Below are positions 12,001-15,000 of a stretch of DNA of 27,166 bases, in pieces. Numbering within the stretch: the stretch's first letter is position 1; each line of letters opens with the position of its first letter. Made by a program: the position numbers. The stretch is from a virus (taxonomy: Duplodnaviria; Heunggongvirae; Uroviricota; Caudoviricetes): the IMG/VR virus record IMGVR_UViG_2526164690_000039; one strand, written 5' to 3'.

Positions 12001-15000
12001 GAGGATGGCGTTGATTGCGGCTTGCTGTTGTTGCTTAGTTCGGAGGAATATTGTTTGCTTCATCGAAATTCTTCTCTTTAATTCCAGCGGCTCTGATAGC
12101 TTTCATTACTGCAATTACCGTTTTGTCACGCCCATCCTCATAACCCATCGCATAAGCACCTTCTTCACCATCTTTCCAAAAGTCGTCATTCGATTCTGGC
12201 CAGTCGATATCCAGTTCAATAGCTGCTCGCGATGCCTGCCATAAAGTCCACCACTCATTTAAGGAGTGACGAATATCCATGCTTGAAAATGCGAAGTACC
12301 TATCACCATTTCTTGCCTCGGTTATCATCTCGAATGGTAATCTCAATTTTTTGGCAACGTATTCCTCAAACTGCTTTCTTGATTCGTCCATCGATACTTA
12401 CCCTCAGTTCAACTCACAAAACGCCACGCCATTTTTGCTACAGCGACAGGCGCAACACCGATAATCACCCAGACAAATGCAGCGCCAAACAACGTATACC
12501 ATGGGTCTTTACCGTCATTCACAAGACGAATGTAGCTATGCAGAACAATAAATAACGTCAGAAGAATCCATCAAACGCCAACGCATTTGAGTGCGACGAG
12601 CATAAACTCAGCCACGATTTACTCTCCCCCAAATAAAAAGGCCTGCGATTACCAGCAGGCCTGTTATTAGCTCAGTGATGTAGATGGTCATCTTTTAACT
12701 CCATATACCGCCAATACCCGTTTCATCGCGGCACTCTGGCGACACTCCTTAAAAATTAGGTTCGTGCTCATCTTTCCTTCCCGTTCTTCCTTGGTAGCAA
12801 ACCGGTAATACACCGTTCGCCAGACCTTACCTTCGATAACCAGAAGACCTGCCCGTGCCATTTTAGCCGCGGCCTGATTTATGCTGGTTACTGTTGCGCC
12901 TGTTAGCGCGGCAACGTCCGGCGCACAGAAGCTATTATGCGTCCCCAGGTAATGAATAATTGCCTCTTTGCCCGTCATACACTTGCTCCTTTCAGTCCGA
13001 ACTTAGCTTTGAGTTCTGCGATCTTCGCCAGAGCCTGTGCACGATTTAGAGGTCTACCGCCCATGACAGGAAGTTGTTTTACTGGTTCAGGGAGCGCCTC
13101 ACCACGGTTAATTCTCGCAGTCATATGGACAAGCTCATCTGCGGCCTTACGGCGTAATTCCGCATCAGTAAGCGCATTGGCCCGCATGTTCTGATACAGG
13201 TTGGTAACCAGCCAGTAGTGCGCGTTTGATTTCCACGGATAAGACTCCGCATCCGGATACAGGCCTCGCTTCCGGCAATACTCGTAAACCATATCAACCA
13301 GCTCGCTGACGTTTGGCAGTCCGGCGATAACGGATGCTTCTTCCCGGCACCATGCAACAAACTGCCCGGGTGATGGCAGAAATGGTCGATTCTGCCGACG
13401 GGCTACGCGCATTCCTGCGTTAACCTGTTCCATTGTGGTGATCCCGTTTTCCCGGAAAGCCAGAACCCACTGGCGGCGGATTTCGTTCAGTTCGTTCTGG
13501 TCACGGTTAGCCAGGCTCGCCGGGAAAGTTGCCAGTAACTGGCTGAACACACCGTTGATGATCTGCGCTACCTGCTGTACCTGAGGCTTTTCGTCGTACT
13601 GTTCCGGCATGTTGTTGGCGATCCGACGCATCTGCTCACGGTCAAAGTTAACCATCTGTGCGGCGATGTTTTTCATAGATCCACCCCGTAAATCCAGTCT
13701 GTGTTTGTCAGGTCGAGTTTTGGTTTGCTGGCTGTCACGGCTGCCTGTTGCTTGTTACGGTTGATTTCGAGCTGGGTCCACTTGTCGCGGAGTTTGGCCG
13801 GACTCAGCACGTTACCGGACCAGAAGTTGTCCTGGCAGGCCCAGCGGAAAAGCACACACATATCGCGGTGGTTACGTCCGTCACGTTCACGCATCAGGCG
13901 GATATCGTTAGCCCACCCTGCAAAATTCGGTTTTCTGGCTGATGGTGCGATGGTCTTCACCATGTCAAACATCCACTCTGCGGCGGTCAGGTCTTCTGCT
14001 GTTCCCCACTTGCTGCCGCTCTGAATTGCAGCATCCGGTTTAACCACAGAAAGATCGTTTTCTGGCTGGTCAGAGGATTCGCCAGAATTCTCGGACGAAT
14101 AATCTTTTCTTTTTTCTTTTGTAATAGTGTCTTTTGTGTCCCCCTGCTTTGAGGGATAGCAATCCCCTAATTTGAGGGATGTTTTATCCCTCGTTTTAGG
14201 GGATTTTCCCTCGTTTTGAGGGATGTCCCTCATTTTAGGGGAACCTCCCTCGTTTTGAGGGATGCACCATTCTGAGATGTTTTTATTTGGTCCAAACATG
14301 CCGCCTTGCTGCTTGATAATATTCATTCTGACGAGTTCTAACTTGGCTTCATTGCACCGTTTGACAGGTAACTTTGTAATCTCGCTAAGTTGAGAATCGG
14401 TGATTCTGTCCATTGGTTTATTCCACCCATAGGTTTTACGCAGAATGGCAAGCAGCACTTTAAACTGTCGCTTGGTCAGATCTGCGCCTGAATAGGCCTC
14501 AAGCAGCATATTTGATAGTCTGGCGTAACCATCATCGAGATCTGCCACATTACGCTCCTGTTCGGCAAAGTTACCTCTGCCGAAGTTGAGTATTTTTGCT
14601 GTATTTGTCATAATGACTCCTGTGGATTGATCCAGTAATTCCCTCAGAATTCCATCTGGATTTGTTCAGAACGCTCGGTCTTGCACACCGGGCGTTTTTT
14701 ATTGGTGAGTCCATCAAGCGCATACTTAAAAGCTCTGCTAATCGGACTGATGTCTGATGCCATTCCGAAAGCACACAAGACCGAAGCAATAAATCTCCAG
14801 TCCGTTCTGCTTATCTTCGATTCATGACAGCCAATCATCTTTGCCAGACCGCGCTGGGTAAGCGTTGACAGGTTGATAAGTAAATCTGTTTCTGCGCGAT
14901 CAACATCACGCTGTGATAGTTTGCTGTAACTTGTTTGTTCCATTTCTTAAGATTTCCAATAGTGAATAGCTAGTTGAAAGGTATGCGTGGAAACGCATAT

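Follow-up and report, generated by a model that had tools for sequence, protein, structure and literature searches.

A predicted replication origin of the six-iteron ori-lambda subtype in a lambdoid prophage without stx

In phage lambda, the N-terminal domain of the replication initiator O binds the iterons of the origin and its C-terminal part recruits P–DnaB, and among lambdoid phages in general pairs of iterons and initiator define replication specificity. The lambda O gene (NC_001416), within which the origin lies, is 900 nt long, encodes 299 amino acids and carries four annotated iterons, the number given for lambda in the sequence-only reading of the DNA studied here. An arrangement with six iterons is also known and is by now a well-documented variant of ori-lambda: it was annotated in 1999 in phage 933W (GenBank AF125520, Plunkett et al. 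1999), with features named 'ori iteron 1' through 'ori iteron 6' in positions homologous to those described below, and it has been studied biochemically. Kozlowska et al. 2020 (PMC7466680) describe the origins of Shiga-toxin-converting (Stx) phages as having six iterons (1, 1', 1'', 2, 3* and 4) against four in lambda; by that paper's account, the credit for the first six-versus-four comparison goes to Nejman et al. 2009. The O proteins of these phages are consequently 13 residues longer than lambda O, and the name 3* marks the single base by which that iteron differs from lambda ITN3 (PMC7466680).

According to the same study, the O proteins of lambda, P27 and 933W each bind all single iterons and both the four- and the six-iteron origins, the Stx-phage proteins less strongly than lambda O (PMC7466680). 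Relative to lambda, the Stx-type module is reported to combine weaker binding of O to iterons with a less compact O-some and a different dependence on host factors (PMC7466680). In EMSA and DMS footprints, strong binding within the six-iteron origin was seen only at the four AT-proximal iterons; iterons 1 and 1' were weakly bound, yet mutation of either abolished transformation by a P27 plasmid (PMC7466680). The plasmids p27mut1, p27mut1' and the double mutant gave fewer than 10 transformants per microgram, compared with 5x10^4 for the parent plasmid (PMC7466680, Table 2). In the authors' proposal, the extra iterons serve to increase the local concentration of O or to stabilise an O-some formed by an initiator of lower affinity, and the 13 extra residues take no part in DNA contact (PMC7466680). 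The experiment suggested in the sequence-only reading, a comparison of plasmid replicons driven by this O-P-ori with lambda ori for copy number and cross-complementation, has thus largely been carried out already.

The DNA analysed here (the window) is a stretch of 27,166 nucleotides from IMG/VR virus record IMGVR_UViG_2526164690_000039. We conclude, with a probability of roughly 0.93, that it harbours a lambdoid prophage's theta-replication origin, which belongs to the ori-lambda subtype found in the Stx phages H-19B and 933W and is an O-P-ori module of lambda specificity in which a 39-bp unit, corresponding to lambda iterons 1 and 2, is duplicated in tandem and in frame. The sequence elements of an ori-lambda-type origin are present: an iteron array, an AT-rich tract adjoining it, a location inside the O gene, and gene P following. 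The six-iteron subtype can be recognized from iterons 1, 1', 1'', 2, 3* and 4, generated by the 39-bp duplication, together with an O protein of 312 amino acids.

The gene for the initiator O, with the origin in its middle, is a 939-nt open reading frame on the minus strand (13673-14611), in whose product residues 22-115 match the Pfam family Phage_rep_O (PF04492; E = 6e-36). The open reading frame of its DnaB-recruiting partner P (12975-13676, minus strand; 233 amino acids; Phage_lambda_P, PF06992, E = 1e-61) overlaps the end of O. Upstream of O lie the open reading frames of cII (14644-14943) and cro (15082-15315), both on the minus strand. The resulting order, cro-cII-O-P, agrees with the annotation of H-19B and 933W and with the RefSeq annotation of a near-identical prophage, and would be the route by which rightward transcription from a putative promoter reaches the origin. 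Between O and cII, homology to lambda places an oop antisense RNA with its terminator (…CACACCGGGCGTTTTTTATT) at about 14625-14701 on the plus strand; no Rfam family matched this putative region. A scan of the window against Rfam found no family at the origin, its sole match being the RNA-OUT of an IS10-type element described below.

As the sequence-only reading had stated, the O coding strand carries six 18-mers of the ATCCCTCAAAACGAGGGA type, which span 14140-14263 on the minus strand. Listed from the AT-distal end of the array, they are iteron 1 (14246-14263), which is ATCCCTCAAAACGAGGGA without mismatch and has the position and sequence of 'ori iteron 1' of 933W; iteron 1' (14226-14243; 933W iteron 2), TTCCCCTAAAATGAGGGA with four mismatches, a diverged copy of lambda iteron 2 that is absent from lambda; iteron 1'' (14207-14224; 933W iteron 3), again without mismatch and identical in sequence to iteron 1; iteron 2 (14187-14204; 933W iteron 4, lambda ITN2), ATCCCCTAAAACGAGGGA with two mismatches; iteron 3* (14163-14180; 933W iteron 5, which differs from lambda ITN3 by the G-to-A change characteristic of Stx-type origins), ATCCCTCAAATTAGGGGA with four mismatches; and the AT-proximal iteron 4 (14140-14157; 933W iteron 6, lambda ITN4), ATCCCTCAAAGCAGGGGG, also with four. 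They are spaced start to start by 20, 19, 20, 24 and 23 bp, in keeping with an ori-lambda-type array, in which imperfect palindromes of about 18-19 bp recur at roughly two helical turns, and equal the six annotated iterons of 933W except for one base in the last. Allowing up to three mismatches to ATCCCTCAAAACGAGGGA, there are three matches in the 27-kb window, all within the cluster, where 0.01 would be expected (100 shuffles), and allowing up to four, the six iterons are the sole matches on the minus strand of the 27 kb. Adjoining iteron 4 is an AT-rich tract (14100-14139; 22.5% G+C over 40 nt), which we assign as the unwinding region of the origin.

When the window, lambda, 933W and H-19B were aligned as DNA, lambda showed a single 39-column gap spanning two iterons, outside which the window and lambda origins differ at a handful of positions; in the protein alignment lambda alone had a 13-column gap, corresponding to IPQNEGGSPKMRD of the window O. 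Tandem Repeats Finder reported a period of 39 nt with 2.0 copies at 14187-14264 (89% matches, score 128). The duplication comprises two tandem 39-bp units on the minus strand, one with iterons 1 and 1' and the other with iterons 1'' and 2. The units are identical at 35 of 39 positions, and the repeat pair is bordered by identical 19-bp direct repeats. The proposal that the extra pair arose as a 39-bp in-frame duplication of the first two iterons is borne out by these results, as is the quoted segment of O, since ...IPQNEGGSPKMRDIPQNEGKSPKTRD... is present in the 312-residue product; which of the iteron pairs counts as 'extra' is not decidable by sequence alone. Aligning the locus with lambda O/ori, as the same reading had proposed, gave four iterons for lambda and not the six that would speak against it. 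The O protein is also of lambda type, as had been claimed: it differs from lambda O by two substitutions (G17E and a G-to-A residue change at 291) in addition to the 13-residue insertion, and P differs from lambda P at four residues. Apart from the 39-nt and 13-residue gaps, the sequences compared are 96-99% identical to those of lambda.

Full-length relatives of this O gene are found in known Stx phages. Over its 939 nt it is 99.9% identical to the O gene of an Stx1a phage, 99.5% to that of H-19B, and 98-99% to those of BP-4795, P27, VT1-Sakai and 933W. To estimate how widespread the six-iteron form is, we used a 68-mer across the duplication junction, which spans iterons 1-1'-1'' and cannot seed a megablast match on a four-iteron origin. 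It was 100% identical in 72 phage records, all of them Stx phages or phages from E. coli that make Shiga toxin (STEC). Of 5,426 complete E. coli genomes, 364 contained the 68-mer, at 572 places in total and at no more than four in any one genome. A 76-nt segment comprising iterons 3-4 and the AT-rich tract, which is common to both forms, was found in 1,304 E. coli genomes, indicating that the six-iteron form makes up a sizeable minority of the lambda-specificity origins of E. coli. Among the best 80 O loci of IMG/VR, 40 had six iterons and 40 had four, with invariant spacing, and no other iteron number was found in these 80. When each bacterial species was represented by one genome, a 32-mer of the six-iteron junction had no exact match; this result covers exact matches in the species representatives only, since the locus L087 (see below) has six iterons and no exact match to the 32-mer.

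These counts bear on whether the additional 39 bp could be an assembly or sequencing artefact within a repeat. Such an origin is conceivable in principle, as 11 single-base indels separate the window from its closest complete genome, and base-level errors must therefore be present in one of the two sequences. However, the same arrangement has been obtained since 1998 from independently sequenced phages (H-19B, 933W, VT1-Sakai, P27 and BP-4795), the additional 39 bp keep the reading frame and recur in several hundred complete genomes, and six-iteron DNA has been cloned and footprinted (PMC7466680). With hundreds of independent sequences carrying the arrangement, we consider an artefact excluded for practical purposes.

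A different question is whether the duplicated DNA acts through its iterons at all. The duplication could be a neutral or nearly neutral passenger, or could have been selected because it lengthens the interdomain linker of O, the extra iterons being idle as DNA sites. Several features are compatible with this. The iteron-encoded residues of O begin at position 117, and the PF04492 domain ends just before them, so that the 13 extra residues (IPQNEGGSPKMRD) sit directly after the DNA-binding domain, in a polar segment encoded by the iterons. None of the four differences between the 39-nt units is silent: they exchange K for G and T for M, so that the protein did diverge. The strong footprints at only four iterons of the six-iteron origin (PMC7466680) point the same way, as do reports, given here as summarized in the citing paper PMC7466680, that lambda grows normally with three iterons (Moore et al. 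1981) and that in vitro two are enough (Wickner and McKenney 1987). We searched by sequence for a solved O structure in which the 13-residue insertion could be placed, and found none. Idle iterons are, however, difficult to reconcile with the loss of P27 plasmid transformation upon point mutation of iteron 1 or 1' (PMC7466680), or with the invariant number and spacing of the array in the 40 six-iteron IMG/VR loci and its presence in hundreds of E. coli prophages. Moreover, a neutral repeat flanked by identical 19-bp direct repeats should collapse often, whereas neither five-iteron nor intermediate forms were seen. We therefore regard it as unlikely that the duplication is a passenger or serves the protein only.

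The sequence-only reading had further suggested that iteron number affects O-some assembly and can change the specificity or efficiency of replication. The published differences are in affinity, O-some compaction and plasmid establishment; the part concerning specificity is not borne out, given that the O proteins of lambda, P27 and 933W bind both kinds of origin (PMC7466680). A stronger form of that suggestion, in which the six-iteron origin and its longer O constitute a new replication specificity class that does not cross-react with lambda O/ori, might draw on the general role of iteron-initiator pairs in setting specificity among lambdoid phages and on the G17E substitution near the N-terminus of O. 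Yet the lambda consensus accommodates five of the six iterons, four being identical to or one base away from ITN1-4, and the N-terminal domain of O is identical to that of lambda save for G17E. As lambda O was found to bind the six-iteron origin in vitro, and Stx-phage O the four-iteron one (PMC7466680), a separate specificity class is contradicted, and largely refuted, by published data, and we consider it very improbable.

Within the replication region, the window differs at a single position from the prophage of E. coli O111:H11 strain 88.0502. At 14147 (C on the plus strand), an A-to-G change on the coding strand, in the central A-tract, gives the AT-proximal iteron an AAAGC centre in place of AAAAC. 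The codon AAA becomes AAG, both specifying Lys, and the change is therefore synonymous. It appears to be private to the window: over the 76-nt query, 99% identity was not reached by any of the 1,310 E. coli records that matched, each match listed having one mismatch, and the change was absent from the best 80 IMG/VR O loci. An AAAGC centre in the last iteron was found only in two diverged four-iteron IMG/VR origins (L004 and L005), which have iterons of the same family but only four of them, the others differing at several positions. These two loci are unrelated to the window, and show only that the position corresponding to 14147 can vary naturally. The change may reflect genuine variation or a mistake in base calling, the latter being conceivable because of the 11 single-base indels that separate the window from 88.0502. 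If genuine, it might affect bending, or the binding of O, at the iteron nearest the site of unwinding.

The prophage itself is 99.93% identical end to end to that of strain 88.0502, and about 95% of the window is covered at 99.9% identity in E. coli O26, O103 and H19 strains. Its genes are arranged in the order Rha-like gene, lysis genes and Q, nin region, ren-P-O-cII-cro, cI, recombination genes, and xis-int, followed by the host gene ybhC. The genes xis and int end the prophage at about 24480-27166, before ybhC, so that the window includes the junction of prophage and chromosome. The segment from cI to nin (11073-16187) is 98.2% identical to H-19B, and the cI product (15429-16133, plus strand) is one residue (N123K) away from the H-19B repressor. 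E. coli H19, the source of H-19B, also carries a 99.9% homologue of the window prophage.

Although its immunity and replication module is of H-19B type, the prophage has no stx gene: tblastn with Stx1A over the window gave nothing (best E 1.3), while the control search recovered Stx1A from H-19B. The neighbours of stx in Stx phages, Q and the lysis cassette, are both there, and the interval between them (about 1200-6400), the site of stx in those phages, holds DUF6645, DUF3927 and one hypothetical gene instead. Carriage by a Shiga-toxin-converting phage, a matter of how the literature frames these origins and not of their mechanism, is thus a feature that the window lacks, and the six-iteron arrangement is not confined to Stx phages. 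A second example comes from E. coli O103 RM8385, where a prophage beside yfaA, of which the 30 kb examined contained no stx, has a six-iteron origin (L087, 13399-13522) and a 312-residue O; this strain also holds a homologue of the window prophage, from which its yfaA-side prophage differs in repressor and integrase. In the papers searched, we found no statement of six-iteron origins outside toxin-converting phages.

Several other features of the prophage were observed. An IS10-type element lies in the nin region at about 9758-11030. Its transposase, of the IS4 family (ISVsa5), is on the minus strand, and Rfam matched the RNA-OUT antisense RNA of such elements at 10959-11028 (plus strand, 98.8 bits). 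The insertion is absent from most close relatives of the prophage, namely those that match with 95% coverage. The interrupted prophage may be defective, and its origin may never fire in the present host. The 11 single-base indels relative to 88.0502 lie mostly at 1954-4246, within the DUF6645 gene, for which RefSeq notes a frameshift, and their clustering points to homopolymer sequencing errors in one assembly or the other. Between nin and Q, a gene of the lipid A deacylase LpxR family (about 6849-7808, plus strand) stands beside a truncated fragment of an antitermination gene, and looks like cargo acquired by the prophage.

The near-identity of the module to its characterized relatives allows a mechanism to be proposed. 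As in lambda, dimers of O, binding through their N-terminal domains, would wrap the iterons into an O-some, and the adjoining AT-rich tract would unwind when the DNA is supercoiled. Recruitment of P-DnaB would fall to the C-terminal part of O, with host chaperones releasing the helicase, and transcription from pR through cro-cII-O would activate the origin. Strong binding would reside in the four AT-proximal iterons, with the distal end of the array auxiliary but required, judging from the P27 mutants in iterons 1 and 1' (PMC7466680). The extra iterons may raise the local concentration of O or stabilise the O-some, as the authors proposed from the P27 plasmid (PMC7466680). Binding by the window O is expected, because binding has been seen for P27 and 933W O (PMC7466680) and the proteins are nearly identical. 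From the one to three residues that separate it from H-19B and 933W O, we infer that it also forms an O-some and initiates through P/DnaB, and the allele as a whole probably behaves like those of H-19B, P27 and 933W.

For the biology of STEC, the window adds one more allele, in a prophage without stx, but no new principle. The occurrence of several such modules in one genome offers a modest lead for cross-talk among co-resident prophages. As these share one O specificity, O from an induced prophage could fire other origins in trans; alternatively, the extra co-resident origins could titrate O. It is possible, although we hold the idea only tentatively and with the odds against it, that six-iteron O/ori is not a trait of Stx phages as such but belongs to a pool of lambdoid prophages in STEC lineages, often several in one genome and including stx-negative and IS-disrupted ones, which could cross-fire or titrate O, with a separate effect of the change at 14147. 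If this were true, trans-firing or titration would couple or damp replication, and hence Stx gene dosage, across prophages. Replication after induction raises stx dosage and toxin yield, and the properties of the origin subtype therefore matter for STEC virulence, which explains the detailed attention it has already received.

In comparison with known systems, the window shares with lambda ori the location inside O, the iteron consensus, the partner P and the cro-cII-O-P layout, and the AT-rich tracts of the two are base-for-base identical. Lambda ITN1, ITN2 and ITN4 are identical in the six-iteron subtype and ITN3 is one base off, iteron 4 of the window in addition carrying the change at 14147. 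What sets the window apart from lambda are the two further iterons of the 39-bp tandem duplication and the 13 further residues of O. From the Stx phages it is distinguished by the synonymous A-to-G change at 14147 and by the lack of a stx gene in the host prophage. Its O differs from that of P27 at several residues, from that of 933W at three and from that of H-19B at one (S200T), and P is likewise one residue apart from that of H-19B. In H-19B, 933W, P27, BP-4795 and VT1-Sakai, the order and spacing of the iterons, IPQNEGGSPKMRD, the AT-rich tract and the 312-residue length of O are all as in the window.
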